Shown piece by piece: positions 36,692-64,000 of a stretch of 64,000 nt of DNA (its first letter is position 1; each line of letters begins with the position of its first letter). The notes under the pieces are model-generated. The model was not told the DNA's origin and did no database searches. It was given only the letters and a program-made list of their open reading frames with translations. The translations under genes were made by a program, and so were the position numbers. Source of the stretch: an uncultured Methanosarcinales archaeon (GTDB taxonomy: Archaea > Nanobdellota > Nanobdellia > Woesearchaeales > UBA583); assembly GCA_964351975.1 (NCBI GenBank), contig CAYGPK010000003.1, positions 91,617 to 155,616 of the forward strand, read 5' to 3'.

Positions 36692-36713
36692 TAATCTTTT
36701 TTCATAATTCTTT

Positions 36714-38198: not shown

Positions 38199-38201
38199 TG
38201 T

Positions 38202-39543: not shown

Positions 39544-39564
39544 TAAAGACTTCTTAAGAATAAT

Positions 39565-39768: not shown

Positions 39769-39962
39769 TTTTTTTGAATAATTAAAATACCTGAATTAAC
39801 ATATTCTGTAATATCTATATCATCACCTTTCTTTAAGTTGTTAGTTAAGATATTGTTTTCAAGTTCTATTATTACTTCCATGATAGTTTATGGTTTTAGT
39901 TATTTATAGAATTTACTGTATGAAAGTTGAAAAAAATAATAAAAAATTGAAAATTATTTTAT

Positions 39963-40841: not shown

Positions 40842-40877
40842 GGAAAATAAACTAACTTAATGAGTTATATAAATATT

Positions 40878-41195
40878 TTAAAATAAACTTCTATAGATTA
40901 ATTCTATAATAAAACCTAAAAATCCTAGAATTATTATTCCTAAGATTGCATATAAAATTACTTTGTCTATTGAGGTTACATTTTTTTCTTTCTTTTTTGT
41001 TTTACCTTTATTAATAAAGTAATCAATAATCCACAATATACAAGCAATAGTTAACCCATTACCAAAAATTCTCCCTTTAATTGAGGGTGTAGCTCCAAAA
41101 ATAAGGCCTGAAATACCATATGCTAACGCAATCCATGCTAAAAGATTAAAAAACCTCTTTGTGGAGTTATGGAATTTTTCTATTAATTTCTTCAT
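40878..41195 (-). CDS. small 3-TM membrane protein
   Basis: 105 aa with three hydrophobic helices. It is the last small gene after the helicase-nuclease. Confidence 0.5.
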   Translation of the reverse strand: MKKLIEKFHNSTKRFFNLLAWIALAYGISGLIFGATPSIKGRIFGNGLTIACILWIIDYFINKGKTKKKEKNVTSIDKVILYAILGIIILGFLGFIIELIYRSLF

Positions 41196-41226
41196 ATTTA
41201 ATTTATACTTTAGTTATTTATAATTT

Positions 41227-44445: not shown

Positions 44446-44446
44446 T

Positions 44447-48137: not shown

Positions 48138-48161
48138 CTTATTTAAATCTCTAATTACTAA

Positions 48162-48169
48162 TTTATATA
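48162..48169 (-). promoter_or_regulatory. possible internal TATA box (TATATAAA on the minus strand) for mcrB
   Basis: 25 nt from minus-strand ATG 48137, in the only 38-nt gap of the gene train. Confidence 0.35.
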
Positions 48170-48175
48170 AGTTTC

Positions 48176-49213: not shown

Positions 49214-49532
49214 TTTTTAGTAATTTGAACTTCATTTTTAAAATATTAATTAACTTGGGATCATCTTTTTTATAGATATCTTCAATTTCTAATATTTTAA
49301 TTTTTGACATAACTGAGACTTTGTTGTGGAGTTCTAATATCTTGTCATATTGTGCTTCTTCCATAACAAATATACTTTCAGACCAACTTAATTTAGTTTT
49401 TAAATCATCATTAGTATATATTCCAATAAAATCTGTTTTGTCTTGAGGAAACATTTCCTTCCAAAGTTTAGAAGCTGAAGGACTTCTATACTTACCTTGA
49501 TTACAAACAAATAAAATATTCATTCTAAGCAA
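49203..49532 (-). CDS. low-molecular-weight phosphatase-like protein (CX5R)
   Basis: NILFVCNQGKYRSPSA matches the LMW-PTP/ArsC P-loop V-C-X5-R-S. It is only 109 aa. Confidence 0.5.
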   Translation of the reverse strand: MLRMNILFVCNQGKYRSPSASKLWKEMFPQDKTDFIGIYTNDDLKTKLSWSESIFVMEEAQYDKILELHNKVSVMSKIKILEIEDIYKKDDPKLINILKMKFKLLKNER

Positions 49533-49887
49533 TTAATGGCAATCCCATAGGTGTTGTTGAATCTAATGCTAAATGAGATGCATAAGAACAAATCATTGAT
49601 TGAAAATATTTCTTTTGTTTAAAATTTAAATTAGTATTATTTTCTATAGCATTCCACAATTTTGGAAGAAGTAAAGTATTTATTGAAACACTATGTCCTA
49701 TACTTCTATGATTAGGATTTGTAGGTGGATCTATTCTATCTGCTAATAAACCAAAAAAAACAGAACCTAAAGAAACAGCTAATAGTTCACCCAAATCAAA
49801 CTGTTCATTTTGAATTCTATGTTGAATAATATAATTTGAAGTCCCAACTAAACCACCAACTAATGCATGTGTATTTGCATTGGGCAT
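49525..49887 (-). CDS. DUF457/YdjM-like membrane-bound metal-dependent hydrolase
   Basis: N-terminal THALVGG, central HRSIGHS, C-terminal HLALDSTTPMGLPL, which is the characteristic His-rich pattern. Confidence 0.6.
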   Translation of the reverse strand: MPNANTHALVGGLVGTSNYIIQHRIQNEQFDLGELLAVSLGSVFFGLLADRIDPPTNPNHRSIGHSVSINTLLLPKLWNAIENNTNLNFKQKKYFQSMICSYASHLALDSTTPMGLPLIA

Positions 49888-49888
49888 T

Positions 49889-50200
49889 TTACTTTTTACC
49901 TCCTTTTTTGAACTTAGACATAAGTTTGCTTATATTAGTTCTATTTTGAGTAACTTTAGCTATTGGCCTTCCAAAATGTCCTTTAGTTGAAGTTGTTATT
50001 GTAACTTTTTTCCCTTCAATTTTGTTTTTTAAAGTAGATTTTGATTGCTTATATCCACTTTGTCTTTTCTCAGGTGTATTTACCTTCTCCAATCTAATAA
50101 AATTAGAGCCATTTACTTTTCTCTTTACTCTGAAAGTATCTCCGTCAAGAACTTTATCAACAGTTCTTGTAACTTTTGTTGGTTTAGTTTTTCTTACCAT
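49889..50200 (-). CDS. mini thermonuclease (SNase-like) protein
   Basis: VLDGDTFRV...IRLEKVNTPE...FGRPIAKV aligns to the SNase core (DGDT, RLxxxDTPE, YGRxLA), with Asn in place of the Ca-binding Asp of DTPE. A TATA box lies 22 nt upstream. Confidence 0.6.
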   Translation of the reverse strand: MVRKTKPTKVTRTVDKVLDGDTFRVKRKVNGSNFIRLEKVNTPEKRQSGYKQSKSTLKNKIEGKKVTITTSTKGHFGRPIAKVTQNRTNISKLMSKFKKGGKK

Positions 50201-50221
50201 ATAGAAAAATCAATTTTAATA

Positions 50222-50229
50222 TTTATAAA
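50222..50229 (-). promoter_or_regulatory. TATA box (TTTATAAA) for the SNase-like operon
   Basis: 22 nt from minus-strand ATG 50200. Confidence 0.55.
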
Positions 50230-50287
50230 TATTTCTAAATATTGTTATTTTGTTAAATACTAACCTATTTATGTTAGTTACAAAAGA

Positions 50288-50295
50288 TTTATAAA
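50288..50295 (+). promoter_or_regulatory. TATA box (TTTATAAA) for the Csa3-like regulator
   Basis: Ends 22 nt before ATG 50317. Divergent from the box at 50222-50229. Confidence 0.55.
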
Positions 50296-50316
50296 TAATT
50301 AAGTTATTGTTAATTC

Positions 50317-50922
50317 ATGGAAAAAGTTTTATTTGCACCTATTTATGATGGAGATTCAGTATTAAAATTATTATTTGATTTAAATCCAGTAGACAGATTA
50401 GTATTGTTTGTCGATGAAAAGAAACCCACAAAACAATCTGAGTATTATAATTTAGTTTCGGGAGTTGCTAAAAAACAAGGAATTAAGTTTGAAGAAGTAA
50501 TTCTTCCATTATATGATATGGTTGAAATTGCGACAGAAATTAATAAATTAGTTGAAAAATATAAAAAATTTGAAATGTATTTTGATATTTCTAGATCTAA
50601 AAGAACGCAGGGGTTTGCAATATTAAATTATTTATCTGTTAAAAAGCCCGAGAATTTAAAGAATGTAATTTATTATTCTAGATCAGATTCTTTAAATGTT
50701 AATGTTCCAGTTCCTAGAGCAGAAGAATTATCTGAAACTGAAATTAAAGCTTTAAAGTATATTAATAAGAATTCAAAGTTTTTTCAAAAAGACTTAGCTG
50801 AATACCTAAACATGTCAGCAATGCACTCAGGCAGAATATTAGATGGATTAGAGCAAAAGAGACTAATTAATAGAGATTCAGGCTACGAATTAACTGATTT
50901 AGGAGAAATCTATTTATTATAA
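50317..50922 (+). CDS. Csa3-like regulator: N-terminal CARF-like Rossmann domain + C-terminal winged HTH
   Basis: 201 aa. The N-terminal half (VLFAPIYDGDSVLKLL...DRLVLFV...YFDISRSKRTQGFAILNYL) has a Csa3/CARF layout. The C-terminal half (FQKDLAEYLNMSAMHSGRILDGLEQKRLI) is a wHTH. Confidence 0.45.
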   Translation: MEKVLFAPIYDGDSVLKLLFDLNPVDRLVLFVDEKKPTKQSEYYNLVSGVAKKQGIKFEEVILPLYDMVEIATEINKLVEKYKKFEMYFDISRSKRTQGFAILNYLSVKKPENLKNVIYYSRSDSLNVNVPVPRAEELSETEIKALKYINKNSKFFQKDLAEYLNMSAMHSGRILDGLEQKRLINRDSGYELTDLGEIYLL

Positions 50923-50961
50923 TAGTAAGAGTTATAAAATACAAAAAAGAGATAATATAAA

Positions 50962-51216
50962 ATGATAGATGATAATAGTGTTAAAACTTTAGAACTTATA
51001 GAAGTAAAAGAGCTAGGTTATGCATATGGATGGGAAGAAAATCAGTTAATAGGAATTCCAATGAATAAAGATGGAACATTAAGTTATGAATCTTGGTGTA
51101 TTGTTGAATTAATTTCTGAGGAGAGCAAAGATAAAATTCTTGAATTACTTGAAAGCTTTGGATTAAATAAAGAAGAAGCTCAGGATTATCTTGAAGATAA
51201 TATTGAGATAGAGTAA
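50962..51216 (+). CDS. small acidic hypothetical protein
   Basis: 84-aa ORF, strongly acidic, no motif recognised. Confidence 0.4.
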   Translation: MIDDNSVKTLELIEVKELGYAYGWEENQLIGIPMNKDGTLSYESWCIVELISEESKDKILELLESFGLNKEEAQDYLEDNIEIE

Positions 51217-51352
51217 ATTTATATATTAATTAAAAAAAAAAATATCAAAACTGAGATCATCCAATTTATAAAAACTATGGGAAGATTTTAATATCTTTAT
51301 TAAATTTAGAAAAACATAATTTTATATGTTCTGTTAATTTAATATTTTGTAA

Positions 51353-51925
51353 ATGTTTTTGCCAACTAAAATTACAGAGGAGATGTGGAATTATGCAAAA
51401 AAGGAAGCATTGAAAAGAGACCCAGACATCAATCACCATTTTAATGTAGATCATTTTAGTCCTATAGAAAGAGATATGGTTGGATTTGTAGGTGAGTTTT
51501 GTTGTTCTAAACTATTAAATTTAGATTGGAAAAAAAATATTAGAGATAATTATAAAACTATTGATGACAATGATATTATTATTAATAATTATAAAATTGA
51601 TGTCAAAACTGAATCATTACCTTTTGAATATTTAAATAAATTAATTAATAGTTTAATAAATGATGATGAAAAATATGGTAGAAGGTTAATTAATGAAAAT
51701 CAAGTTAAGTTAATCCCTAAATATGATATCACCATTTTTGGTTGTATAGATAGAGACAAAAAAGATAAATGGTACTTTCTAGGTTGGATTGTTAACACAA
51801 AGTTATTAAAATATATTCCAACTAATCTCAGGCCTGATGGAAACTACTATCCTTTTAAAGCATTACCAATAAAAACTTCAGAGCTAAAGAAATTCTCAGA
51901 CTTGATTTCTTATTTAAATAATTAA
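51353..51925 (+). CDS. hypothetical protein, possible PD-(D/E)XK nuclease
   Basis: GFVGEF ... DDNDIIINNYKIDVKTE fits an E...D...(D/E)xK arrangement. Weak. Confidence 0.35.
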   Translation: MFLPTKITEEMWNYAKKEALKRDPDINHHFNVDHFSPIERDMVGFVGEFCCSKLLNLDWKKNIRDNYKTIDDNDIIINNYKIDVKTESLPFEYLNKLINSLINDDEKYGRRLINENQVKLIPKYDITIFGCIDRDKKDKWYFLGWIVNTKLLKYIPTNLRPDGNYYPFKALPIKTSELKKFSDLISYLNN

Positions 51926-53121
51926 TATAATTCTTCAATTTTATTTCTAATTTGGTCAAAATTCATTTCTTCTGTGAAAAAATTTGAATCAAATCCTGTA
52001 TTTAATACAAAGATATAATCTTTTAATGAATAAATAAACTCACTCTGATTCAGGCTAATTTCAATATTTTTTGATTTTGTTATTAAACACAAATACTGGT
52101 AATCTCTATCAACAAAACTAAAATTACTTCTGGGATGTGCTTTTGTTCTATGTTGGCTTGAGGTCAATAATATTAAATTTTCAGTATAAGATTTAATTAA
52201 TGGGAAATCAGAAGAAGGAAAAATATGATGAACTTCATTAGCTAAACCATTAGACAAATCATCAGTTATCTCACTAATAAAATTATAATGCTTTCTAATA
52301 ATATTTTTAGCTTTTTGCTCAGTATATTTAAAAGAATTTTCTTCTAATAATCTAATTTCATTCTTAGCCCTTATTTCATATTCTGCTCTAGTTTCACTAT
52401 TTAATTTTTGAATATCTCTCCAATTTTTTCTATTATACATTAGCTGATCATAAGTTATTATGTCTAACGATAAAGTTCCTCTTATAGTGCCTTTTTTATT
52501 AAATTTATATGCAATAGGATTTAAAATTTTAGTAAAAATTCTTCTTACCTCAGTTTTACCATTTATAGGAGTTGATTCAATTATAAAATTCTCATAGTTT
52601 GTCTTTAAGTTTATGAAACTCATTCTATCTTGTCTTTCTAAGAAATTTTTAAATTCATTGTATATTTCTGAGTCTTTTAGAACTTTAATTAAATATTCCT
52701 GAATAAATTTTAATGAATTTCTTTCTCTTATAGATATAAAATTTAAAATTTTTTCGTTTTCAAGTTTATAATAACATCTACTTCCTATTTTTGATTCAGT
52801 AAGGACACCTGAATATGCTAACATTTTTAATGGTTGTTGGAAAAATTTATCGTATTCATTTGAAGCATTTTGATTATTAATACCAGGTTTTGAAAATATC
52901 ATTTTAACATTACTAGAAGTATATTCTAAATTCCATATCTCTCTAGATGTAAATTTATTCTTTTTAATAGGAAATGCTTCTATTAAATTTAATATACAAT
53001 CTGCTATAATACATAAAACATCAGGAGTAACTTTTTGATCTGTAAATCTAGCATTATGTGATTCTCTAATATCATAATTTTTTGAATTAAGTAAATTATT
53101 TATTTCTTCCTCAATTTCCAT
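51922..53121 (-). CDS. HNH-motif restriction endonuclease candidate
   Basis: C-terminal NEVHHIFPSSDF...ENLILLTSSQHRTKAHP (H-N-H). It overlaps the methyltransferase gene by 11 nt. Confidence 0.65.
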   Translation of the reverse strand: MEIEEEINNLLNSKNYDIRESHNARFTDQKVTPDVLCIIADCILNLIEAFPIKKNKFTSREIWNLEYTSSNVKMIFSKPGINNQNASNEYDKFFQQPLKMLAYSGVLTESKIGSRCYYKLENEKILNFISIRERNSLKFIQEYLIKVLKDSEIYNEFKNFLERQDRMSFINLKTNYENFIIESTPINGKTEVRRIFTKILNPIAYKFNKKGTIRGTLSLDIITYDQLMYNRKNWRDIQKLNSETRAEYEIRAKNEIRLLEENSFKYTEQKAKNIIRKHYNFISEITDDLSNGLANEVHHIFPSSDFPLIKSYTENLILLTSSQHRTKAHPRSNFSFVDRDYQYLCLITKSKNIEISLNQSEFIYSLKDYIFVLNTGFDSNFFTEEMNFDQIRNKIEELY

Positions 53122-55588
53122 TTTTTATACCCCAAAAATATATTGAATTTTTATCAATATTTAGTGATCTTGTTCCAAAATTTCTAGCTATCCTATAATA
53201 ATCATAAAATTCTTCTGATTTAAAATAATTCAAATTACTAATTTTAATATCTTCTTCAGTATTAATTAATGCTAGTGAGCCATCACAAATACTATTTTTT
53301 GGAAGAAAACTAGCTCTAGGATAATAACTTAAGTTTGGAATGATTATAGAATTACTGTTTAAAAATTTTTTAACAACAAAAGAATCAATATTATCAACAA
53401 AAGTATCATAACCTTTAATATTAATAATTTCTCCGTCACGAGACAAATTTCTTGATTTTAAAACTCTAAACTTACCTGAACTTAATTTAGTATCTTTTTT
53501 TGTTATCTGTCTATCTCTAAACGAAGTAAAAACTCCAAGTCTTAATGTTAATGTTACCTCGTCAAAGAAAGAATTTCTGTATATTAACCAATAAGGAAAC
53601 CTTTTATCAATAATATAAGATTTATTTAAATAATTTATTTCTTTAGTTATTAAAGACTCTATTTTTATACTTGAGTCTGATACTTCTAAATTCTCAACCA
53701 ATATAGAAATCGTCTCAATTTTAACTCCCTCAAATCCTGTTTCTCCAAAATCAGAGATTTTATAAATATTTAACTTCTCTAGATCATCTCTTAAATTTTT
53801 ATACTCGGGACTACTTAAAACATTCTTAGGAATAATTAAACCTACATTTTTAGAAATTTCTAAAGATTTTTTAAAAAATAGTATAAATAAATTTTTAGAA
53901 TAACTAAAATCATAATTCAAACTTAATTGTTCTTTTGAACATTTTCCAAAAGGAGGATTGCCAACTACTAAATCAAATTTTTTTTTAATTTCTTTTAATA
54001 AAAAATCAGTATTTTCAAAATAAACATTAAAATTCTTTGGTATTTTCTTTAATAAAAATAATAATTTTAAAGTTTCAATAATTTTCAAATCTAAATCAAA
54101 TAAATATAAATTAACTTTTTTAATTTTAGAATATTTTTCAATAAGTAAAGTTATTATGTTACCACAACCAACTGATGGTTCAAGAATAGAAATTTCTTTT
54201 TTAGTTGAAAAATCAGGTAAATCTTTAACTAAATTATATCCTATCTCCATAGGTGTATAATATCCTTTAAATTGATCTCTCATCAAATTTGAGAATTCAC
54301 AAATTTTTAATAATTCAGAGAATGAATAATTATTAAAATTTTTTTTTAAAAAATTATTTAAGTTTTTAGTATTAGTTAATTTTTTTTCAGAAATAATTTT
54401 TAAAACCTCTTTCTTAGTTAAGGATTCTGTTAAATATTTAGAAATATTTTTTGAAATCTTATCAAAAACTAAAGTTGGGACTGCTTCACCTAAAACTTGT
54501 CTAATATTAATTTCATGCTTTTTTAAATATTTTTTTTTATCAGGGATGCTTAGTTCATTTAATTTATCTATATTATCATTACTCCATTTAAAATTATCTG
54601 GAACTGACATAATTCTCATTAATTCTCTAATACTAAAAACTCTATCATCCCTCGGATGTATTGTCGATTGACTAGATAAGATATCATTTCTAGTATGAAT
54701 ACAAGGAGAAACTTTATTCCAATAACATCTTGAATATTTATCTCCATTTTTATTTTTATTGAAAACTATTTCACCATTAATTATTTTATGTGGTCTTTTT
54801 AATTCATCTTTATTGTCAAATGCACTTTCACCCTCTTTAATATCTGAAATCCAACTTCTCATATGCTCTGAATACTCTTTAAAATTATGATATATATCTT
54901 TGGAGTCAATTTCTCCCATAACTTTTAAAGGCTTTAAATCTCCAATTGTTTCTTTTAAAGATTTAACTTTCTCCATACTAGGAAGTAACTGAAAAGGAGA
55001 AATATCTTTTAAATTTTTTCTAACTCCTATAACTAATGTTCTAGTCCTACTACTTGGAACTCCAAAATCTTTAAAGTTATATGTGTCATAAGAAATATTA
55101 TATAAACCCCCTAAATTTTTTTCAATTGCATCTTTAATAGGTTTATTTACACCATCTAAATCAGTACATTCAGTCTTCAAAAATGCTCTAACATTTTCAA
55201 AAATGAAAAATTTTGGAGAATACTTATTTATAATATTAATGGATTCAATAACTAAAGAGTTTCTTTTTAATTCATTGTTTTTTTTATGATTTGCAACCGA
55301 CATCCCTTGACAAGGTGGTGTTGCTATAATTACATCTAATTCTGAAAGTAAACCTTTAGACTTCCATAAATTAATTTCTTTATCTAATTCTCTTTTTGTT
55401 GAATCTAATCTTATGTCTTCAGAAATATATCCTGAATTAAATTTGCAAATATTATTTGCTTTTTGAATTTCAATTCTTTTTTTTAAAATTTCAATAGAAC
55501 TAATACAATTAAAATTATTTTTATGAAACCCATAACATCCTACACCTCCACTACTAAAAAGAGTAACATAATTTAATTTTTTAGACAT
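53111..55588 (-). CDS. bifunctional DNA methyltransferase: N-terminal C5-cytosine MTase fused to C-terminal N6-adenine (gamma-class) MTase
   Basis: m5C motifs LFSSGGVGCYGF (I), ATPPCQGMS (IV), FIFENVRAF (VI), LGEAVPTLV (X). m6A motifs ILEPSVGCGN (I), VVGNPPFGK (IV). Confidence 0.85.
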   Translation of the reverse strand: MSKKLNYVTLFSSGGVGCYGFHKNNFNCISSIEILKKRIEIQKANNICKFNSGYISEDIRLDSTKRELDKEINLWKSKGLLSELDVIIATPPCQGMSVANHKKNNELKRNSLVIESINIINKYSPKFFIFENVRAFLKTECTDLDGVNKPIKDAIEKNLGGLYNISYDTYNFKDFGVPSSRTRTLVIGVRKNLKDISPFQLLPSMEKVKSLKETIGDLKPLKVMGEIDSKDIYHNFKEYSEHMRSWISDIKEGESAFDNKDELKRPHKIINGEIVFNKNKNGDKYSRCYWNKVSPCIHTRNDILSSQSTIHPRDDRVFSIRELMRIMSVPDNFKWSNDNIDKLNELSIPDKKKYLKKHEINIRQVLGEAVPTLVFDKISKNISKYLTESLTKKEVLKIISEKKLTNTKNLNNFLKKNFNNYSFSELLKICEFSNLMRDQFKGYYTPMEIGYNLVKDLPDFSTKKEISILEPSVGCGNIITLLIEKYSKIKKVNLYLFDLDLKIIETLKLLFLLKKIPKNFNVYFENTDFLLKEIKKKFDLVVGNPPFGKCSKEQLSLNYDFSYSKNLFILFFKKSLEISKNVGLIIPKNVLSSPEYKNLRDDLEKLNIYKISDFGETGFEGVKIETISILVENLEVSDSSIKIESLITKEINYLNKSYIIDKRFPYWLIYRNSFFDEVTLTLRLGVFTSFRDRQITKKDTKLSSGKFRVLKSRNLSRDGEIINIKGYDTFVDNIDSFVVKKFLNSNSIIIPNLSYYPRASFLPKNSICDGSLALINTEEDIKISNLNYFKSEEFYDYYRIARNFGTRSLNIDKNSIYFWGIKNGN

Positions 55589-55609
55589 ATTAATTTATAA
55601 GTATAACAC

Positions 55610-55617
55610 TATATAAA
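55610..55617 (-). promoter_or_regulatory. TATA box (TATATAAA) for the MTase-HNH operon
   Basis: 22 nt from minus-strand ATG 55588. Confidence 0.5.
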
Positions 55618-55724
55618 GTTTTGTTATCAGAGGATGGGTATTAACAATTACTATTTATAATTTTTATTTTAAATCAATTATAAACATTATTATGTTTAAC
55701 CCACTCTCTAGTAATTTAAAAAAT

Positions 55725-55732
55725 CTTATAAA
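55725..55732 (+). promoter_or_regulatory. TATA box (CTTATAAA) for the Lrp-like regulator
   Basis: Ends 22 nt before ATG 55754. Confidence 0.5.
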
Positions 55733-55753
55733 CCTTAAAACTACAGACTAACT

Positions 55754-56713
55754 ATGTTAGTAGATAAATGGGATAAGAAGATTCTTTATGAATTAGATAA
55801 GAATGCTAGAGCTTCACTCTCAGAGATTGGAAATTCCATTAATAAATCTAAATCCTTTGTCAAATACAGACTTGACAATTTAACTAAAAATGGAGTTTTA
55901 AGAGGATTCTTCGTCATTTCTGATTATTCAAAAAGAGGAATCGAAGCTAGAAGTTTATATCTACAGATTTATGATAATGAAGCAAAACATAAAATCATCA
56001 AATATTTACAGAAAAAACCTATTATATCAGCTATTTTTGAAACTACAGGGATTTATAAACTTGTAATTAACCTTAAAACTACATCTAAGATTGAACTTAC
56101 TCAATTTATTGAAAAATTATTAGTTGATTTCAATGATGATATTGAAAGTTATAAAATTTTACTTTCATACAGATCTTTTTCACCTGCATACAACTTTTTC
56201 CATGATAAAGATATGAAAAGAATAGTTAAGGTAAAAGAATATAACAATTCAAAACAAATACCATTATCAAAGAAGGAATTAAATTTATTTGATATAATTG
56301 CTAAAAACCCTACTATTTCTAAGACTGAAATGGCAATTAAAATGAAATCAACTAGAGAAACAGTAACTAAATTGTTTAATGAACTCTTTGAAAAAGGAGT
56401 TTTAATAGATATAAAACCATTCTTAAATTCTGATTTATTAGGTGAAGGTTATGTTAGAAAAATTTTCATAATTGAACTGAAAATGAAGGGATTTTTACAA
56501 TTAGAAGAATTTAAAAAATATTTATTAGAAAAAAATGAAGTAATTCACTTATCATTTACTATGGGTTCAGGAGACTTATTCTTTACAGGTATTTTCAAAG
56601 ATAATGCCTGTTTTAAAGCATTTGAAGATGATTTTGTAAATAAATTTAGTTCAATAATTAAAGCTGAAACTTTACTTGATTACCATGACAATTATATTAA
56701 TCCGTCAAAATAA
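55754..56713 (+). CDS. tandem-duplicated Lrp/AsnC-type HTH regulator
   Basis: Two HTH units: DKKILYELDKNARASLSEIGNSINKSKSFVKYRLDNL and LNLFDIIAKNPTISKTEMAIKMKSTRETVTKLFNEL. Confidence 0.6.
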   Translation: MLVDKWDKKILYELDKNARASLSEIGNSINKSKSFVKYRLDNLTKNGVLRGFFVISDYSKRGIEARSLYLQIYDNEAKHKIIKYLQKKPIISAIFETTGIYKLVINLKTTSKIELTQFIEKLLVDFNDDIESYKILLSYRSFSPAYNFFHDKDMKRIVKVKEYNNSKQIPLSKKELNLFDIIAKNPTISKTEMAIKMKSTRETVTKLFNELFEKGVLIDIKPFLNSDLLGEGYVRKIFIIELKMKGFLQLEEFKKYLLEKNEVIHLSFTMGSGDLFFTGIFKDNACFKAFEDDFVNKFSSIIKAETLLDYHDNYINPSK

Positions 56714-56808
56714 TAGTTCAAATATTGAATAATTTGTCTTTTTTATATCTAATTTTCTTCTTATCGTTCAAGATTTAGAAAAATACCTTTATATAGTTTG
56801 AACACTTA

Positions 56809-57930
56809 TTGTTACTATATAAAGTGACAACACAAAGCATACCTAGAATTGAAGAGAATAGTTTTGCATTAAAAGAGAGAATACTATTTTTCATATCAGG
56901 TAACCCTTTGAGTACTTGTAGAGAAATTTCAAAGAATCTTAATTTATCTTATAATAATGTTAATAGGAAAATTTTAGAAATGAAAGAACAAGGTATTGTT
57001 GAAAGAAGAAGTTTAAAGTATAAGATTTCAGATTCGTATGTGAATTATTATCAGGATTTATACAAAAACCTTATTATCACAAATAATGAGAAGGTAATGC
57101 ATTATAGTGAAAAAGAGTCTCAATTTGGAGAGATATTTAATCATTTAGCTGATAAGACCATATTAGAAGAAATTAATACTAAGATTGATTTGTATGTTGC
57201 TGAGAAATTAGATATGTGGAATAAGAAAGTTAATCAAAATACTAAAAAAGAAATAAGTAAGATAGTTAGCACAATTCAAGAAACTTTTGGAAATAGAAAA
57301 AATCTAAGAGTTTTAGATATCGGATGTGGAACTGGAAGATTAACATTCTCATTATCTAAATTTTATGATGAAGTAGTTGGTATTGACCATAATAGAAAAT
57401 ACATTAAATATTGTAGAGTAAAAAGAGATCAATTAAAATTAAATAATTTGAAATTTAGACCTGCTAAAGTTACCTCATCAATTAATGAGTTTAAGTATGA
57501 TGTAATTATTATAGGTAAAATTAATTTACATAGTATGAAAAATAAATCTGAAATTATCTCTAACCTAAAGAAGAAATTAAATAATAATGGAATTATAATT
57601 TCAATTGAACTAATTGAAAAAGCTGAATTGTTTAAATTTTTAAATGAATTTAGAGATTTTAATTTGGAGAAATATAAATTAAATAGATTAAGTTTAATTG
57701 AAGATTTCACAAAAGGAGGATTTAAAGTTACATCAGAGATTGTTGAAGATGAGAACACTTTTGAGACAAAACAAGAGATTTTAGATATCTACAAAGTATC
57801 AGCTCTTTTCTTTCAACCTTATCTTCAATGGTCTCTAGAAGATATAGATAAATTAAAAGAACATTTGATTAAAATGGTTAAACCTTTAGTTCATAATAAT
57901 GATTATTGTTTTATAGTTTGTAAAAAATAA
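56809..57930 (+). CDS. winged-HTH domain fused to a class I SAM-dependent methyltransferase
   Basis: N-terminal ILFFISGNPLSTCREISKNLNLSYNNVNRKILEMKEQGIV (wHTH) and VLDIGCGTGRL (SAM motif I). The start is uncertain: TTG 56809 or in-frame GTG 56824. Confidence 0.65.
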   Translation: MLLYKVTTQSIPRIEENSFALKERILFFISGNPLSTCREISKNLNLSYNNVNRKILEMKEQGIVERRSLKYKISDSYVNYYQDLYKNLIITNNEKVMHYSEKESQFGEIFNHLADKTILEEINTKIDLYVAEKLDMWNKKVNQNTKKEISKIVSTIQETFGNRKNLRVLDIGCGTGRLTFSLSKFYDEVVGIDHNRKYIKYCRVKRDQLKLNNLKFRPAKVTSSINEFKYDVIIIGKINLHSMKNKSEIISNLKKKLNNNGIIISIELIEKAELFKFLNEFRDFNLEKYKLNRLSLIEDFTKGGFKVTSEIVEDENTFETKQEILDIYKVSALFFQPYLQWSLEDIDKLKEHLIKMVKPLVHNNDYCFIVCKK

Positions 57931-57931
57931 T

Positions 57932-58807
57932 TTATTCTTTAATATTTCTCTTCTTTTGCCAATCTTTTCTACATTCTAAAATATATTCCAATTGTTTTTC
58001 TTTACTATAAAAATGATTTATTAAATCTAGCATTATCTGATAAACTCTATAAGCAAATATTGGAACAGACATTTCAGAATCTAAATCGCCATTCTTCTCA
58101 ACTTCAATTTTTCCTTTATTTTTAACTTTTTTAAATTTCTGTGAATTAAAATGATATAAGGTGCTCCTAATACAATTAATATAATCAATTTTATCATAAA
58201 ACTTAGTTTTTATTTTTAATTTTTTAAGTGCATTATTGTCATTTCTTAAGAAATAACCTAAAGTATAATTTCTATCTAAATTTAATTTTTTTGCATCTTC
58301 TTTGTTCAATATTCTTAAATATTCATATTTCAAAATATATTCACAACAATTTACAGCACTTGAAATACTTGCTAACCACATTCCCACTTCATAGGTAAGA
58401 TATGATTGAATTGCAAATTCTTCAATAAAGTTTTTTATAGAATACCATTCTTGTGGTTCATCAAATAAATCAGTATAAAGAGTATGAGGTTCAGGAGATT
58501 GGATTCTATATATTTTAGGCATTCTAACTTCTTTAGGAAAAATTTCAGTTTCACTTAATTGAAATTTAAGAAATCGCATATTTTGGTATTGTTGAAATAA
58601 ATTTTTAGTCATATCAATTTCTTTCATTCGCTCTTTTTGATTATTTTTTTTCTTTTTAGATTTAAGTTCTTTTTTTAATTTTTCAATTAAAGGTAAAATT
58701 GCTTTTTCATCCTTCTTCTTTTCAATTTCTTCAGGAGGAAAAACATGCACATTAGGATCAAATTCAAAAGTTCCTTGATAAATAAAATTAGGGATTTCTT
58801 TTTTCAT
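57932..58807 (-). CDS. hypothetical protein with HEPN-like Rx4H motif (tentative)
   Basis: The helical C-terminal half contains NCIRSTLYHFN (R-x4-H). No other motif recognised. Confidence 0.3.
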   Translation of the reverse strand: MKKEIPNFIYQGTFEFDPNVHVFPPEEIEKKKDEKAILPLIEKLKKELKSKKKKNNQKERMKEIDMTKNLFQQYQNMRFLKFQLSETEIFPKEVRMPKIYRIQSPEPHTLYTDLFDEPQEWYSIKNFIEEFAIQSYLTYEVGMWLASISSAVNCCEYILKYEYLRILNKEDAKKLNLDRNYTLGYFLRNDNNALKKLKIKTKFYDKIDYINCIRSTLYHFNSQKFKKVKNKGKIEVEKNGDLDSEMSVPIFAYRVYQIMLDLINHFYSKEKQLEYILECRKDWQKKRNIKE

Positions 58808-58950
58808 ATTAAATTCAAATGTTTATTATTTATAATTATTTTTATTTTCACAATAAATTTAAATAGTGGTTTAACTTATAATTTGTAGATTATAAACTAT
58901 TTTCAAAAATTCTTAATTCGAAATTTCTTCGAAAATCCAACCATTAAGTA

Positions 58951-58968
58951 GGAGATATTAATATCTCC
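58951..58968. promoter_or_regulatory. perfect 18-bp palindrome upstream of the transfer-module promoter
   Basis: GGAGATATTAATATCTCC lies 12 nt upstream of a TATA-like box (58980-58987) that precedes ATG 59007 by 20 nt. Confidence 0.5.
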
Positions 58969-59006: not shown

Positions 59007-59330
59007 ATGGTAAAAATAATTTCAATATTAATAGCCATGTTGATTGTACTACCAATAGCTTTTAGTATCGGTCAGTATGAAATGACAGAAGAAGAAAAAG
59101 CAGATGCAGACTTATTATTAAGTCCAATTTGGAAGTTAGTAAGATTAGCACAATATGCAGCGACAGGAATTGCAGCTTTAGCATACACATTTGCAGGAAT
59201 AGTATTCTTGTTTGCAGGTCAAGACCCAAGTTTAAGGGACATGTCAAAAATGATTGCAACTTACACAACAGGAGGATTAATATTCGTTTGGGCTGTTCCA
59301 ACACTGATTAAAATATTTTCAAATTTCTGA
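59007..59330 (+). CDS. VirB2/TrbC-like (or CedA1-like) small membrane protein
   Basis: 107 aa with a signal-like N-terminus plus two hydrophobic helices, a pilin-subunit topology. First gene of the module. Confidence 0.45.
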   Translation: MVKIISILIAMLIVLPIAFSIGQYEMTEEEKADADLLLSPIWKLVRLAQYAATGIAALAYTFAGIVFLFAGQDPSLRDMSKMIATYTTGGLIFVWAVPTLIKIFSNF

Positions 59331-59332
59331 GA

Positions 59333-61459
59333 ATGAAAAAATTGTTAATAATTTTTCTATTCTTGTTTTCAATTAATTTAGTATATAGTTTTGATTGTAA
59401 TTATTTTGCAGATCAAAAACTAAAAGATAATTGTTTACAAAGTATAGAAATAGATAAGGACTTAGTAGCTAATTTGATATACAAAGATTCATTATATCCA
59501 AACCATGAATTTGTATCAAGTTATAATAATAATCTTACTAGAGAGAATTATATCTCAATTATTAACAAAACAGATTCAACACTTCTAAAAAATGTATTTA
59601 CAAAAATATTAGATGTTAGTCCATCTATTGAATATAAAGGAGAGTTATTAGTCCCTAACCAAACAAATCTAAGAATAGATAATTATTATGAATATTTAAT
59701 TCCTCAAAGTTATTTTTTAAGTTCTAATGATTTATCTGACAATGGGAAAGTTTGTGGAAATCAATATAGCTTAAATAATATTTATGATGAATCTAAACTT
59801 TTCAAGAATGGAATACAAATCCCAATCTCTGAGCAATTACCAATAAGTAAAGATACAGAATTAACTCTAAATTATAATGTTGAATTATCAATGAAAATTG
59901 ATGAGTATAGATTTGATAAGTTATGTAAACACTACAAAAATAATAAATGTCAAGAGTATAAATTAATTTGTGAATATTCTAAAACAACATATCAGGTAGA
60001 TAGTATAAATGTGAATGATAGCATTACTTTAAGTTTATACAATGAATCAAGTTTACCTAATTTCATTATTGAAGATCAGTATGAAAAAACATTAAATGGT
60101 AGAATATACAACTCATCATATTCAAATTTGTTGATATACAATAATGATTCATACTATAGAGAATATAACTATAAATTTAGTGCATACTTTACAGATTTAG
60201 AATTTTTAAAAATCAAAGCTGTAGATTCAACTCACTCTAGTTTTAGAAATTTAATCAAGACAGGAACTATAGTTTACTTATCAAATTTAAGTGATTGTAA
60301 TATATTTTCAACTAACTTTTTCAAAACTAAAGAGGGTGATTGTGAATACCAGTTAATCAATAAGACAATTTCTGATTTTAAAGAAGAACCATTTAAGAAG
60401 ATACTAAGAATTTTACTAAACTTATTATTATTTGGAACTGGATTATACTTGACATATATTATAGGTAAAAAAATCCTAAAGAAAATGTTTCCATTTTTGT
60501 TTCTAGTATTATTACTAGTTACACCAGGAGTATTTGCTCAAACTCCAAACGAAGATGTAAGGGAATGTGGAATATTTGATATTGAAGCATGTTTTGATTT
60601 ATTCTTTGATAAATTGTATGGATTAATTAATGCACCAATACAAGGATTACTTGATTATGTTAAAATCTTAATGATTGAATTTCCAGATTTAGAAATAGCT
60701 AAAGGTAAATGGATGATGATGTTATATTTAGTTAATTCATTAATTGCTATTCACATGACACTTTCAGGAATTATGATGATTGTTCATTCATATGACCCTG
60801 TTAAAAAAAGTATTGCAAAAGAGAACATTTTCAATTCATTAGTAATTTTAATTTTAGCTTCAGCATCATATTATTTATATGGACTTGCAATGGAAGTTTC
60901 AGGAGCATTAACTTCAACGATATTTAATTTTGTATCTGACGACTTTCTTTTGATTCAACATTCAAGTAGTGCCATTTTGAATATGGGTAGTATAGGTGTA
61001 GATTTCGCTTTAGCATTAATATTCTTTCTTGAACTAATAATACTTTTTTTATTATTTTCAATTAGATATCTTGTATTAGGTATTGGATTAATTCTAATTC
61101 CTATTGCTATTTTTTCATATTACATTCCTAAACTAAGAGGAATTGGAGCTATCATGTTTAAGATAATTAGTTTTTACATGTTCTTTCCAGTAATTGCATC
61201 AATAATCATTTTAGGGTGTGATACAATGTCATATGCAGATGATTTGTTAGCATTGAACACAATCATACTAATTATTTGTTTTTTCATTATAGGGTATGTG
61301 TTCTATAAATTCTCAGAAGGTATAATTAAAGGAACAATAAATTTCTCAGAAATAAATAATATTGTTAGCTCACAACATAATCATCAGCACTATTACCAAA
61401 CAAAAACTGAGAAAATTGAACAACCAAAAAATAACGAGGATTTAACTAAATATATTTAA
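59333..61459 (+). CDS. large membrane protein: secreted Cys-containing N-domain + VirB6/TrbL-like polytopic C-domain
   Basis: N-terminal signal peptide, ~340-aa soluble region, one TM helix, then a second signal-like segment (LFLVLLLVTPGVFAQT) followed by ~6 TM helices. Confidence 0.5.
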   Translation: MKKLLIIFLFLFSINLVYSFDCNYFADQKLKDNCLQSIEIDKDLVANLIYKDSLYPNHEFVSSYNNNLTRENYISIINKTDSTLLKNVFTKILDVSPSIEYKGELLVPNQTNLRIDNYYEYLIPQSYFLSSNDLSDNGKVCGNQYSLNNIYDESKLFKNGIQIPISEQLPISKDTELTLNYNVELSMKIDEYRFDKLCKHYKNNKCQEYKLICEYSKTTYQVDSINVNDSITLSLYNESSLPNFIIEDQYEKTLNGRIYNSSYSNLLIYNNDSYYREYNYKFSAYFTDLEFLKIKAVDSTHSSFRNLIKTGTIVYLSNLSDCNIFSTNFFKTKEGDCEYQLINKTISDFKEEPFKKILRILLNLLLFGTGLYLTYIIGKKILKKMFPFLFLVLLLVTPGVFAQTPNEDVRECGIFDIEACFDLFFDKLYGLINAPIQGLLDYVKILMIEFPDLEIAKGKWMMMLYLVNSLIAIHMTLSGIMMIVHSYDPVKKSIAKENIFNSLVILILASASYYLYGLAMEVSGALTSTIFNFVSDDFLLIQHSSSAILNMGSIGVDFALALIFFLELIILFLLFSIRYLVLGIGLILIPIAIFSYYIPKLRGIGAIMFKIISFYMFFPVIASIIILGCDTMSYADDLLALNTIILIICFFIIGYVFYKFSEGIIKGTINFSEINNIVSSQHNHQHYYQTKTEKIEQPKNNEDLTKYI

Positions 61460-61460
61460 A

Positions 61461-64000
61461 ATGGCATATGAAATTCCAAAACAATTAAAGTATAAAGAAA
61501 AATTTTTCCTAAACCTAACTTTTCATCAAGTAGGATGGTTAATGATATTTTCAACTATTGTTGTTTTTATTATGAGACTTGATTCAATTAATTTTTATTT
61601 AAGATTAATTATTTCAATTCCAATAACCTTACTAGGAATAGGATTTATCTACCTAAACTTTAAAGACTGGATTTATAGAATTATAATTTTCTTTAAATTC
61701 AAGTTAATTTCAATTAACTCATTATTAATGGGGAAGTATTTAGGAGTTCAAAAGATTGAAAATAATTCAGTTTATTTGAAATCAAAAAGACTTGCTATAA
61801 TTGAAACAACTCCAATTAACTTTAGTATAAAAAACGATGAAGATAAAGAAGCAATAGTATTTGGATTTAGAAAATTTCTAAACTCACTAGATTTTCCTAT
61901 CCAATTTGTAATCACAACTAATAACCTTTCAATTACTGAATATTTAGATGAGTTGAAATCAAGAAACTCTAACACTAGATTATTTAATGACTTTTTCAAG
62001 TTCATGCAGAGTCTAATCAAGAAAAATAAACTTAGAAATAGAAGATTCTTTTTAGTTATAACTGAGCAAACAAATTTAGATAATCAAACTCAAATCTGTA
62101 TAGATAAGCTAAGACAAATTGGAATTTTATCTAATAGGTTAAATGATAAAGCAATAATTAAAGATCTTCATTTATTTTTTAATGATATAACTGATAAGAA
62201 TGAATATAATAATAACTTTAAAAATAACTCAATTAATTATTTGATTGCTCCAAATAAAATTGAAAACTTCCCAGACTATTTCAAAATTAATGAAAAGTTT
62301 TGTAGAATTATTGCTGTTAAAGATTACCCTAATGTTGTTGAGTCAGGATTCTTAGATAAGATTATTTCTACAAATGAAGATTTTGATATTTCCATACACA
62401 TCATGCCTTACAATAATGAGTCTTCAACTTTAATGCTTAACAATCAATTAAATAAACAAAAAGCAGATTTGTTTGCATTAAATAAAAAACAATTACAAAA
62501 TAGATCACTTGATAATCAATATGGAGATACTCAAAAGATATTAGATAGGATTCAAAGAGGTCAGCAAAGATTATTTGAGGTTTCATTATATATTAATTGT
62601 AAGAGTGAATCAAAAAAAGAATTAGACCTTTTAACGGCTAAAGTTAAAGCTGAATTAAATTCAGTTATGATGGTTCCTCATATTCCTTACTTTAGACAAC
62701 TTCAAGGATATAAATCTATCATGCCAGTTGCAAACGATCAATTAAAGATTGAAAAGAATATTACAACAAAAGCACTTGGAACATTTATTCCATATACTAG
62801 TACATTCTTAGATGTTCAAAATAGTGGAGTTATGCTTGGCCTTAACAGGAATAAAGTTCCAGTAATCAAAGATATATTCAAACTATCAAATGCAAATGGT
62901 GTAGTTTTGGCAACTTCAGGAAGTGGAAAATCTTATTTTACTAAATTACTTATCTTAAGACAATTATTATCTGGAACTAAAGTTATGGTAATTGACCCTC
63001 AAAGTGAATACCATGAACTATGTAACCATGTAGATGGAACTTTAATTACAATCTCAAGATATTCTGAATCTATAATTAATCCTCTTGATTTAATGGGTCA
63101 AGATTTAATTAATAAAAGGTTAATGTTAATGGACTTGTTTAAAGTTATGTTTGGAGAATTATCTGAAGCCCAAAAAACAATCTTAGATAGAGCTATTGTA
63201 AAAACATACAAGAAATACAATATAACTGATACATCTTATAAAAATGTTGATAAGATGCCAATTCTAAAAGATTTGTATCAAATTTTAGAAAAGGATTCTA
63301 AAAAATCTAACTCTTTAGATAAAATTTCATATCAAGTATTACTAAATAGATTATACATGTATACTGATGGAGTTTTCAAATTTTTTAACAGACAAACTAA
63401 TTTAGATTTTGATAATGATTTTGTTTGTTTTGATATTGGTGATATGCCTGAACAAGTTGAACCTGTTGCAATGTTTCTTGTTTTAGATTATGTATACAAG
63501 AAAATGAAACAAACAAAAGAAAGAAAACTTCTTATTGTTGATGAAGCATGGAGTTTGTTAAGTAAAACTAAAGGTTCAAATTATATTTTTGTAATAGTTA
63601 AAACATGTAGGAAATCAAATTTAGGTCTTCTACTAATTACTCAAGATGTACTTGATTTACTATCCTCAAAAGCAGGTAAAGCTGTACTTAACAATTCATC
63701 ATATACATTTTTACTAAGACAAAAAACATCTGTAATTCCTGAGGTTATGAAAACTTTTCATTTATCTTCAATGGAAAAAGAATATCTTCTTACAGCAAAT
63801 AAAGGTAAAGGAATTTTAATCATGGATAATGATCATCAAGAATTAGAAGTTATAGCATCTCCAATTGAACATGACATTGTGACAACTAATGCTGATGAGA
63901 TTATCAGTAAAACAATCATTACAAAAACTATTGTTAATGAAAATGAATTTGATAAGCTTAATTTAGAGAAAGGTTTATTCAAAGATGAGAATTTAACTGG
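61461..64000 (+). CDS. VirB4/TrbE-family transfer ATPase with fused N-terminal 2-TM (VirB3/PrgI-like) segment; partial, runs off the window
   Basis: Hand-translated and open from ATG 61461 to the window end. MAYEIPKQLKYKEKFFLNLTFHQVGWLMIF (2 TM), VVLATSGSGKSYF (Walker A), RKLLIVDEAWSLL (Walker B), LGLLLITQDV. Absent from the ORF track because it has no stop in the window. Confidence 0.8.
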   Translation, partial: MAYEIPKQLKYKEKFFLNLTFHQVGWLMIFSTIVVFIMRLDSINFYLRLIISIPITLLGIGFIYLNFKDWIYRIIIFFKFKLISINSLLMGKYLGVQKIENNSVYLKSKRLAIIETTPINFSIKNDEDKEAIVFGFRKFLNSLDFPIQFVITTNNLSITEYLDELKSRNSNTRLFNDFFKFMQSLIKKNKLRNRRFFLVITEQTNLDNQTQICIDKLRQIGILSNRLNDKAIIKDLHLFFNDITDKNEYNNNFKNNSINYLIAPNKIENFPDYFKINEKFCRIIAVKDYPNVVESGFLDKIISTNEDFDISIHIMPYNNESSTLMLNNQLNKQKADLFALNKKQLQNRSLDNQYGDTQKILDRIQRGQQRLFEVSLYINCKSESKKELDLLTAKVKAELNSVMMVPHIPYFRQLQGYKSIMPVANDQLKIEKNITTKALGTFIPYTSTFLDVQNSGVMLGLNRNKVPVIKDIFKLSNANGVVLATSGSGKSYFTKLLILRQLLSGTKVMVIDPQSEYHELCNHVDGTLITISRYSESIINPLDLMGQDLINKRLMLMDLFKVMFGELSEAQKTILDRAIVKTYKKYNITDTSYKNVDKMPILKDLYQILEKDSKKSNSLDKISYQVLLNRLYMYTDGVFKFFNRQTNLDFDNDFVCFDIGDMPEQVEPVAMFLVLDYVYKKMKQTKERKLLIVDEAWSLLSKTKGSNYIFVIVKTCRKSNLGLLLITQDVLDLLSSKAGKAVLNNSSYTFLLRQKTSVIPEVMKTFHLSSMEKEYLLTANKGKGILIMDNDHQELEVIASPIEHDIVTTNADEIISKTIITKTIVNENEFDKLNLEKGLFKDENLT

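Follow-up and report, generated by a model that had tools for sequence, protein, structure and literature searches.

A minimal type IV secretion-like gene trio with a nuclease-like VirB4 tail in DPANN-type archaea

Three adjoining genes at the right end of a 64,000-nucleotide (nt) stretch of DNA, here called the window, raise the question of what kind of machine they encode and whether it serves a mobile element or the cell that carries it. We conclude, with little room for doubt, that their products make up a minimal type IV secretion system (T4SS) of monoderm MPF-FATA ancestry; the further proposal, that they are a conjugation-like DNA-transfer module carried by small integrated elements, is one for which we see the case as evenly balanced. 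The genes lie on the plus strand at 59007-59330, at 59333-61459 and from 61461 to the end of the window, with spacers of 2 nt and 1 nt between them, and form one operon. The first two open reading frames (ORFs) were listed with ATG starts and lengths of 107 and 708 amino acids (aa), and translation from 61461 gave 846 codons without a stop up to the window end. The original prediction had described this same geometry, with at least 846 aa for the ATPase, and all of it was confirmed; it had also explained correctly that the ATPase gene was missing from the ORF list because its reading frame runs off the window. The full-length ATPase (P0001) has 995 aa. Dozens of independent genomes encode conserved homologues of all three products in this order, and the ORF pattern is therefore not the product of chance. 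The parts of the module are as follows.

59007..59330, plus strand: VirB2/TrbC-family pilin-like protein of 107 aa (ORF, Pfam and family alignment)
59333..60484, plus strand: N-terminal part of the 708-aa protein (hydropathy and composition)
60485..61459, plus strand: VirB6/CedA-like polytopic core of the 708-aa protein, residues 385-708 (hydropathy, hhalign and Pfam)
61461..61790, plus strand: PrgI/VirB3-like N-terminal segment of the ATPase, with two transmembrane (TM) helices at residues ~19-66 (Pfam PrgI)
61791..63971, plus strand: VirB4 body, with the N-domain at residues 223-403 and the P-loop ATPase domain at residues ~451-804
63972..64000, plus strand: first 9 codons of a PD-(D/E)xK nuclease-like domain (from the full-length sequence of P0001)

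The product of the third gene begins with a hydrophobic stretch within its first 66 residues, read as two helices from hydropathy, and carries the Walker A motif ATSGSGKS at residues 484-491 (nt 62910-62933) and the Walker B motif LLIVDEAW at residues 690-697 (nt 63528-63551). In Pfam it matched P-loop_TraG (E = 1.2e-30) and also AAA_10, DUF87 and, at the N-terminus, PrgI, and it passed the VirB4-specific model CagE_TrbE_VirB with 27 bits against a cut-off of 21. The NCBIfam model conju_CD1110 (NF045971) was matched at 348 bits, above its cut-off of 325, by the window-truncated query. VirB4_plasma, the model for VirB4 of Mycoplasma integrative and conjugative elements (ICEs), aligned from end to end, N-terminal segment included, at 375 bits, which is below its cut-off of 590, and the score for TIGR00929 (proteobacterial VirB4) was likewise below cut-off. 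The best PDB match of a profile of 28 homologues was Thermoanaerobacter VirB4 (4AG5, E = 1.9e-47), and a tblastn search of 72,556 plasmids returned as best matches the VirB4s of the Firmicutes CD1110 family and the Mbov_0397 VirB4s of Spiroplasma, at 24-32% identity. On the strength of the Pfam VirB4 domain, the CD1110 score and the 4AG5 match we rejected a housekeeping ATPase of the FtsK/HerA type and assign the third gene, as had been predicted, to the true VirB4s. The PHROGs label 'terminase large subunit' (phrog_2666, E = 2e-32) was also rejected, since the curated VirB4 models score far better; it probably reflects P-loop ancestry or the prophage-region annotation of VirB4-like genes. In public records the homologues are labelled mostly 'ATP-binding protein', 'DUF87 domain-containing protein' or 'hypothetical', and a few are called VirB4 or TraC by the NCBI and JGI pipelines.

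The fusion of a VirB3-like segment to this ATPase, which had been proposed from the two predicted TM helices, also stood up to comparison. When residues 1-110 were isolated, they matched Pfam PrgI (PF12666) at 28.4 bits against a cut-off of 27, and so did the homologous N-terminal segments, all 41 of 41 of them. In 14 loci the segment is a separate gene of ~115 aa (cluster c7) that precedes a correspondingly shortened VirB4. Like bona fide T4SS families, this one has VirB3 both fused to VirB4 and free, and the 708-aa (B6) protein both split and fused.

The 107-aa product starts with a signal peptide (approximately residues 1-21), after which two hydrophobic helices form a hairpin with the charged loop GQDPSLRDMSK. 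Hydropathy indicates the signal-like helix and one strong hydrophobic segment; the second helix of the hairpin was read from the family alignment. The window protein, which is the most divergent of its family, scores 26.5 bits against Pfam T4SS_pilin (E = 7e-6), at a cut-off of 26.6. In the alignment of the family (A2), compared with the pilin models PF04956 and PF18895, T4SS_pilin was matched by 46/46 members, with a best E of 6.4e-17, and TrbC/VirB2 by 45/46, with a best E of 7.3e-12; the signal peptide ends at an A-x-A-like site, and the hairpin loop SG.D..KRE.AK is conserved and charged. It is at this family level that the predicted VirB2-like character of the protein was borne out, and we place the first gene, by alignment, in the VirB2/TrbC-type pilin family. 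A search of the PDB with the pilin profile gave chance-level matches to ribonuclease kappa, a small membrane protein, and nothing else. No similarity was detected by hhalign between the pilin and the small Clostridium protein; with only one sequence as template, this comparison is a weak test.

The 708-aa product has about 8 hydrophobic segments by hydropathy and is best described as a composite protein whose conserved unit is its core. The N-terminal part, residues 1 to ~384, consists of a signal peptide, an extracellular domain of ~335 aa and a TM anchor at residues 360-378; the extracellular domain is rich in Asn, Ser, Tyr and Cys, with 9 N-x-S/T sequons and 8 Cys, and would suit a surface or adhesin role. 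Among relatives the N-terminal part and the core are split into genes of ~460 aa and ~300 aa, or the core occurs alone. The core, with ~6-7 TM helices, starts with a second signal-like helix, and its first ~150 residues (this helix and, from nt 60764 on, the hairpin SGIMMIVHSYDPVKKSIAK) are homologous to the pilin over its entire length: hhalign of the B6-core alignment (A3) against A2 gave a probability of 97.7% (E = 1.7e-12 over 108 columns), both have the hairpin FAG...SG.D..KRE.AK, and 17/37 B6 cores match Pfam T4SS_pilin by themselves. A weak match of 7/37 cores to the NCBIfam model 'Mbov_0395 family pilin-like conjugal transfer protein', from the Mycoplasma ICE, was also seen. Such homology between channel protein and pilin is on record for CedA/CedA1 and, less strongly, for VirB6/VirB2 (PMC9905601).

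The 708-aa protein found no family in Pfam, NCBIfam or PHROG, and the VirB6, TrbL, PrgH and CD1112 models of Pfam and NCBIfam were matched neither by it nor by 37 family members. Comparison of the core with the Clostridium CD1112 VirB6 gave an hhalign probability of 0.2%, again with a single-sequence template and hence as a weak test, and the core profile found no match in the PDB. The AlphaFold2 (AF2) model, made from a 2-sequence alignment, was unusable (pLDDT 32.9). The term 'VirB6-like', used in the original prediction, was therefore upheld for position, topology and the pilin-like N-terminal module and has to be limited to these, because no VirB6 or TrbL model matches. We treat the core as a VirB6/CedA-type channel by architecture, position and internal homology, and not as a demonstrated member of the VirB6 family.

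The original prediction was to fall if the neighbouring membrane proteins did not accompany the ATPase. A scan of the GTDB species representatives gave 433 confirmed stretches, and 80 of these loci were fetched; a protein search returned more than 500 clusters at 45-60% identity, nearly all of ~990 aa. Word-index searches with the 708-aa and the 107-aa proteins each returned one close relative, and the pilin and B6 families were built from the fetched loci, in which ORFs were called, clustered and searched with family hidden Markov models. Co-conservation was counted over the 58 loci with at least 3.5 kb of sequence upstream of VirB4. In 54/58 a B6 core is encoded on the same strand no more than 3.5 kb upstream of VirB4, and in about 55/58 the B6-B4 pair is preceded by a separate pilin ORF, so that both membrane proteins do accompany the ATPase. 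The family is widespread in archaea of the Woesearchaeota/Nanoarchaeota (DPANN) type.

The order of the genes (small TM protein, VirB6-like protein, PrgI, VirB4) is that of the CD1110-type conjugative plasmid region of Clostridium. This order, the PrgI-type VirB3, a VirB4 that passes the CD1110 cut-off and the plasmid VirB4s at 24-32% identity tie the trio to MPF-FATA systems, that is, to CD1110/CD1112/PrgI of Firmicutes, the ICEs of Mycoplasma and Spiroplasma and PrgH-PrgI-PrgJ of pCF10. The Clostridium plasmid additionally encodes VirD4 and a transglycosylase, whereas phmmer and jackhmmer searches with Clostridium queries found no VirD4 or other type IV coupling protein within ±10 kb at 82 loci and no SLT-like or CD1112-like protein within ±10 kb of the archaeal loci. 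VirD4 was likewise absent from the recurrent neighbour clusters, and the neighbour analysis of the fetched loci found no relaxase, cell-wall hydrolase or VirB8-like partner near the trio. The archaeal systems differ from MPF-FATA in these absences, in a B6 without detectable similarity to the CD1112 VirB6, in the extra nuclease-like tail of VirB4 and in their archaeal host.

The tail occupies residues 838-995 of P0001 and reaches ~150 residues past the window end, out of sight of the original prediction. It is present and conserved in all full-length homologues. Its AF2 model, from a 25-sequence alignment, is a compact alpha/beta domain (pLDDT 95.8, pTM 0.89), and in Foldseek the top PDB matches of this model were NucS/EndoMS, PspGI, YaeQ, Mus81, Can2 and EcoRV, with a best E of 1.5e-3. 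Probabilities reached 0.99 at a TM-score of ~0.4, and nearly all matches belong to the PD-(D/E)xK superfamily; the best viral matches were restriction endonucleases, T7-type endonuclease I and VRR-NUC/HJR nucleases. The sequence profile of the tail gave a weak match to the Cas4 nuclease (E = 0.14). Among 65 tail sequences with a mean identity of 28%, five positions were nearly or entirely invariant: H49 in 64/65, (P/A)-D77 in 64/65, E91 in 65/65, E93 in 65/65 and K108 in 64/65. The resulting pattern is PD...ExE, with K108 in the next helix; an ExE variant of this kind is found in BamHI, an active enzyme. By fold and motif the tail is predicted to be PD-(D/E)xK nuclease-like, and it may act as a nuclease. 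The presence of a nuclease-like domain on a cytoplasmic ATPase points to a nucleic-acid substrate.

No tail was found in the plasmid VirB4s, since no match among the 72,556 plasmids extends past query residue 813. When 1.84 billion representative proteins were searched exhaustively with a profile, 671 were found to carry the domain, many of them VirB4 C-termini or fragments and others standalone proteins of ~175-182 aa on contigs of up to 126 kb. Those that are not VirB4 are all annotated as hypothetical, and the sole organism label given is Woesearchaeota. The tail of VirB4 thus represents an unnamed domain family. Standalone versions of ~180 aa or versions with N-terminal TM helices, with or without a coiled coil, are seen in P0124, P0128, P0273 and P0129, on long contigs of Woesearchaeota.

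Among the predicted proteins of the window, domains of eRF1-type release factor/Pelota, Taw1 (wyosine), RtcB and MCM speak for an archaeal origin. The closest relatives of the module are overwhelmingly metagenome-assembled genomes (MAGs) labelled Woesearchaeota, Nanoarchaeota or Nanoarchaeia; from these labels and the GC content of the window, which is ~25%, we infer that it belongs to the DPANN. In public sequence P0001 has no gene record, and the 708-aa protein was found on a single Logan contig of 2.3 kb. The DNA runs that contain the locus are biofilm, estuary and aquatic metagenomes, and none of the RNA runs searched contains it. Module-bearing contigs of the GTDB collection are often titled 'uncultured Methanosarcinales archaeon' (L003, L007, L009, L013 and others), and two single contigs (L012, L018) are titled Cloacimonadota or Bacteroidota bacterium; such titles resemble placeholders or mis-binned contigs and are unsuited to taxonomy.

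Recurrent among the neighbours of the module in related loci are two families of tyrosine integrases, restriction-modification (R-M) genes of types I, II and III, Vsr-like endonucleases, small ribbon-helix-helix (RHH)-like proteins, and a pair formed by a TFIIB-like protein and a protein of ~89 aa (c5). When the neighbours within 10 kb were counted at the 42 loci of at least 15 kb, a tyrosine integrase was present in 20/42, an R-M cluster gene in 22/42 and the TFIIB-like/c5 pair in 17/42. At six loci (L017, L028, L029, L053, L056 and L069) a tRNA gene, an integrase, 0-5 further genes and the pilin-B6-VirB4 trio follow one another on one strand, and at L024 the order is tRNA, integrase and VirB4 only. 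One element could be delimited: at L053 a 19-bp sequence, AATCCTCTCCTGAGGCTTT, made up of the final 16 nt of tRNA-Thr and 3 nt more, is repeated without mismatch 16.7 kb downstream, and the interval encodes an integrase, a DUF559 endonuclease, the trio, unknown genes, a radical-SAM protein and a D-aminoacyl-tRNA deacylase. A 15-bp repeat at another locus (L043) was discarded as an attachment (att) site, its second copy lying inside a methylase gene. Furthermore, 2-3 divergent copies of the module, 52-90% identical, occur within several single MAGs. It is the linkage to integrase, tRNA and att site, together with the divergent copies and the company of TFIIB-like and R-M genes, that leads us to favour a transfer module of integrated elements. 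The linkage to integrase and tRNA points to the transfer of a mobile element at least as strongly as to the interaction with the host that the original prediction had considered.

Archaeal ICEs with homologues of VirB4, VirB6, VirB3 and TFIIB and without a relaxase have been described (Krupovic et al. 2019, PMC6563490). Their median length is 64 kb, and they encode VirB4 paired with VirD4 as well as components of a type IV pilus; Sulfolobus plasmids likewise carry VirB4 together with VirD4 (PMC6563490). The DPANN loci resemble these ICEs and the conjugative plasmids of Sulfolobus in the tyrosine integrase, the VirB4/VirB6/VirB3 set, the nearby TFIIB homologue, the type I R-M cargo and the lack of a relaxase. 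They differ in that the module has no VirD4, the sole delimited element is 16.7 kb long, the pilin is of the VirB2 type and VirB4 carries the nuclease-like tail.

Several observations weigh against a DNA-transfer module of integrated elements, or against the parts from which it is read. The missing VirD4 counts here because the published archaeal ICEs and Sulfolobus plasmids pair VirB4 with VirD4, and so does the failure of every VirB6-type model to match the 708-aa family. About half of the long loci have no integrase within 10 kb. Within the delimited element at L053 no replication module or relaxase was recognised, and its D-aminoacyl-tRNA deacylase looks like a housekeeping gene. Binning of the MAGs may inflate the copy numbers. 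The matches of the tail to nuclease folds are statistically weak (E ~1e-3, TM ~0.4), and its third catalytic position is Glu and not Lys. As for the window itself, the nearest integrase to the trio is 18 kb off and on the other strand, and a search for att repeats gave AT-rich chance matches, the right side being cut off; the window's own copy may nonetheless lie on a mobile element. In a related locus (L082, ~87% nt identity) a block of AsnC and methyltransferase genes and the trio are syntenic with the window at 86-88% nt identity, and synteny of this kind fits a stable chromosomal system too.

The last of these points leads to an alternative that we take seriously while thinking it doubtful on the whole, namely, that the trio is a domesticated chromosomal T4SS for episymbiosis, acting either in nucleic-acid import, as Ced and Ted do, or as an organelle of contact and transfer like that of the Patescibacteria. 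In the import variant, DNA would come from the host or from siblings, and the nuclease would process it for recombination or nucleotide salvage. The component set is that of Ced/Ted (PMC9905601) and of the Patescibacteria T4SS (PMC12102498), and there is no VirD4 near any locus. The family, which is under strong purifying conservation, is spread very widely (433 stretches, more than 500 protein clusters). Synteny between the window and L082 holds for the trio, whereas the cassettes close by vary, and the large extracellular domain of B6 could touch the host surface. Set against these arguments, the order of tRNA, integrase and trio, the att-delimited element, the divergent copies and the R-M, TFIIB-like and RHH-like neighbours are hallmarks of mobile elements, and no recombination or repair genes, such as the HerA/Rad50 genes of Ted, were found adjoining the trio.

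The Patescibacteria are one of the two published cases. Their T4SS, which consists of VirB4, PrgI, VirB6 and T4SS_pilin and mostly lacks a relaxase, is reportedly indispensable for epibiosis (Quinonero-Coronel et al. 2025, PMC12102498). Like the archaeal family, it belongs to an ultra-small, host-dependent lineage and combines a VirB4 of MPF-FATA ancestry with PrgI/VirB3, VirB6 and a pilin of the PF18895/TrbC type, usually without a relaxase. It differs in three respects: no VirB3-VirB4 fusion was found there, while the fusion is the rule in the archaeal family; the system is chromosomal and often near dnaA, while the archaeal module is often linked to an integrase and a tRNA; and no nuclease-like tail is described there (PMC12102498). 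The parallel between this system and the archaeal family suggests that two radiations converged on the same machinery.

Ced is reportedly a DNA-import system of the Sulfolobales, described by van Wolferen in 2016, and the original prediction had likened the trio to it. Ced of the Sulfolobales and Ted of the Thermoproteales comprise VirB2-like, VirB6-like and VirB4-like proteins without a coupling protein or relaxase (Beltran et al. 2023, PMC9905601), and their components are reported to have no recognisable sequence similarity even to each other (PMC9905601). The likeness of the DPANN trio to them lies in architecture: a three-part minimal T4SS derivative, a channel of ~7 TM helices whose N-terminus is homologous to the pilin and, as in TedC of Ted, an archaeal pilin with a cleavable signal peptide. 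Unlike Ced and Ted, the DPANN family has a canonical VirB4 with the VirB3 segment, the VirB4 N-domain and the nuclease-like domain, its pilin is recognisable by the standard VirB2/TrbC models, and the module is linked to integrases and not to HerA/Rad50 repair genes. The comparison held for the shared three-part architecture, as an analogy and not as membership in the Ced system.

Another alternative is that the trio is a T4SS that secretes proteins or effectors into the host, a role proposed for SPEARE, the giant surface proteins with VirB4 domains of the Nanohaloarchaeota (PMC10266531). That VirB4-containing surface proteins have been proposed as secretors in another DPANN lineage (PMC10266531), and that B6 has a large surface domain, would agree with it; in both cases a VirB4/TraG-like ATPase of a DPANN lineage is tied to large surface-exposed, adhesin-like regions. 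In SPEARE, however, the ATPase lies inside a giant Ig-repeat protein, no pilin/VirB6-like trio is described, and an earlier claim of an endonuclease domain is disputed (PMC10266531), whereas the tail of the archaeal VirB4 has a nuclease-like fold at high model confidence. Because no effectors, chaperones or coupling protein are conserved beside the trio, and because the nuclease-like domain on its cytoplasmic ATPase suggests a nucleic-acid substrate, we regard effector secretion as very unlikely. A membrane defence or exclusion system that was made from T4SS parts and degrades incoming DNA is more improbable still, for although the trio adjoins R-M, McrBC, Mrr and AddA-like genes in the window, has R-M cluster genes within 10 kb at 22 of the 42 long loci and includes an ATPase-nuclease fusion with a weak PDB match to DptH, its retained pilin, VirB3 segment, VirB4 N-domain and VirB6-like channel are hard to explain in this way, and integrated elements, too, typically carry R-M genes as cargo.

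For a transfer module of integrated elements, one could picture the following scheme, in which pilus formation, DNA as the substrate and the direction of transfer are what we infer. A VirB4 hexamer, anchored by its VirB3 segment, would dock onto the B6 channel and power the extraction of pilin and its polymerisation into a conduit. The hexamer would also power the passage of DNA, whether to or from another cell, through the channel. The nuclease fused to it would nick or cut the DNA and could so replace the relaxase step and possibly the missing VirD4, while the 708-aa protein would supply the channel and a large extracellular domain open to glycosylation. Carried further, the scheme would give a self-sufficient machine free of relaxase and coupling protein, in which the tail cuts or nicks DNA at the channel entrance and feeds it to the ATPase; three genes and an integrase would then make a conjugative element of ~15 kb, the smallest known. 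Alternatively, the machine would take up host DNA and digest it for nucleotides. We consider this extension tentative and rather unlikely to be right as it stands. If it were true, then in either version the trio would be for archaea what the T4SS is for the Patescibacteria that depend on it, and it would offer a concrete answer to the question of how DNA is processed in relaxase-free archaeal conjugation.

For the study of how DPANN cells exchange material with their hosts or siblings, and of relaxase-free conjugation in archaea, the family offers a defined and testable three-gene object, and the nuclease-like domain could be the missing DNA-processing activity. In addition, small tRNA-integrated elements rich in R-M genes bear on the spread of defence genes in reduced genomes. 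Full-text literature searches found no published description of the family in Woesearchaeota or Nanoarchaeota. T4SS-like trios as such are already known from Ced and Ted, the archaeal ICEs and the Patescibacteria. For these compared systems we did not find described a PD-(D/E)xK-like fusion to VirB4, a VirB3-VirB4 fusion as the rule, a channel protein that starts with a pilin homologue beside a pilin still recognisable as VirB2/TrbC, or very small tRNA-integrated elements without VirD4.

The trio is preceded in the window by a mobile and defence island of ~20 kb (37689..58807), in which the GC content is 0.22-0.26, compared with 0.26-0.31 further left. Its genes, named from Pfam matches except for the last, are as follows.

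37689-38198: Mrr
38202-39437: DDE transposase with a SWIM finger
39963-40841: archaeal phage-type integrase (PF16795)
41227-44445: AddA-like UvrD-PD-(D/E)xK helicase-nuclease of 1072 aa
44447-48137: McrB and McrC (McrBC)
48176-49213: MCM fragment of 345 aa, with P-loop and lid only
50317-50922: Csa3/HFX_2341-like regulator
51922-55588: fusion of a C5-cytosine methylase and an Eco57I/N6-type methylase, 825 aa, with a 399-aa partner
55754-56713: AsnC regulator
56809-57930: helix-turn-helix (HTH)-methyltransferase
57932-58807: variable ORF of 291 aa without a family match

The comparison with L082 shows which parts of this island vary. The R-M cassette upstream is type II-like in the window and type III in L082, and the segment 57934-58908, which holds the one 291-aa ORF in the window, is replaced in L082 (6343-9576) by 3.2 kb with three unrelated ORFs. 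The segment between the syntenic blocks looks like a hot spot of cassette replacement. Downstream of the trio, L082 encodes proteins of 44 aa, 84 aa and 527 aa without a Pfam match.

Synteny at the trio begins at position 58909 of the window, just ahead of one further feature.

58917..58968, plus strand: upstream control region (sequence reading and comparison with L082)

Within it lie an inverted repeat, TTCGAA-N5-TTCGAA, at 58917-58933 and a perfect 18-bp palindrome, GGAGATATTAATATCTCC, at 58951-58968, the latter unique in the window, where 0.05 would be expected by chance. Downstream of the palindromes, ~25 nt ahead of the ATG of the pilin gene, the sequence is AT-rich and TATA-like. In L082 the first repeat reads TTCGGAA...TTCCGAA, so that both arms are changed and the palindrome is kept, and the second palindrome is partly kept. 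Both palindromes are candidate regulatory sites, and the first may be an operator for one of the HTH regulators nearby.

Four further observations were made elsewhere in the window. A full-length bacterial-type RelA/SpoT homologue with HD, RelA_SpoT, TGS and ACT domains is encoded at 28314-30239 on the minus strand, and its presence in a DPANN-like genome may reflect horizontal acquisition. In the gap between this gene and the next ORF, at 30268-30345, lie two tandem 39-nt units that are 90% identical (TTGATACAAGAATGAAGCAAAGCGTAGTGTCTCGTACCC) and richer in GC than their surroundings. At 12101-16030, on the plus strand, a RecQ helicase (DEAD, Helicase_C, RecQ_Zn_bind and HRDC) is followed directly by an unusual helicase of the UvrD family that has an RQC domain at its N-terminus and an HRDC domain at its C-terminus and looks like a UvrD core fitted with the accessory domains of RecQ. 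Finally, the region 32092-37437 may be another locus for a surface structure: two ORFs of 784 aa and 716 aa without a Pfam match lie there on opposite strands and adjoin an archaellin or type IV pilin-like protein (Arch_flagellin, 36847-37437).

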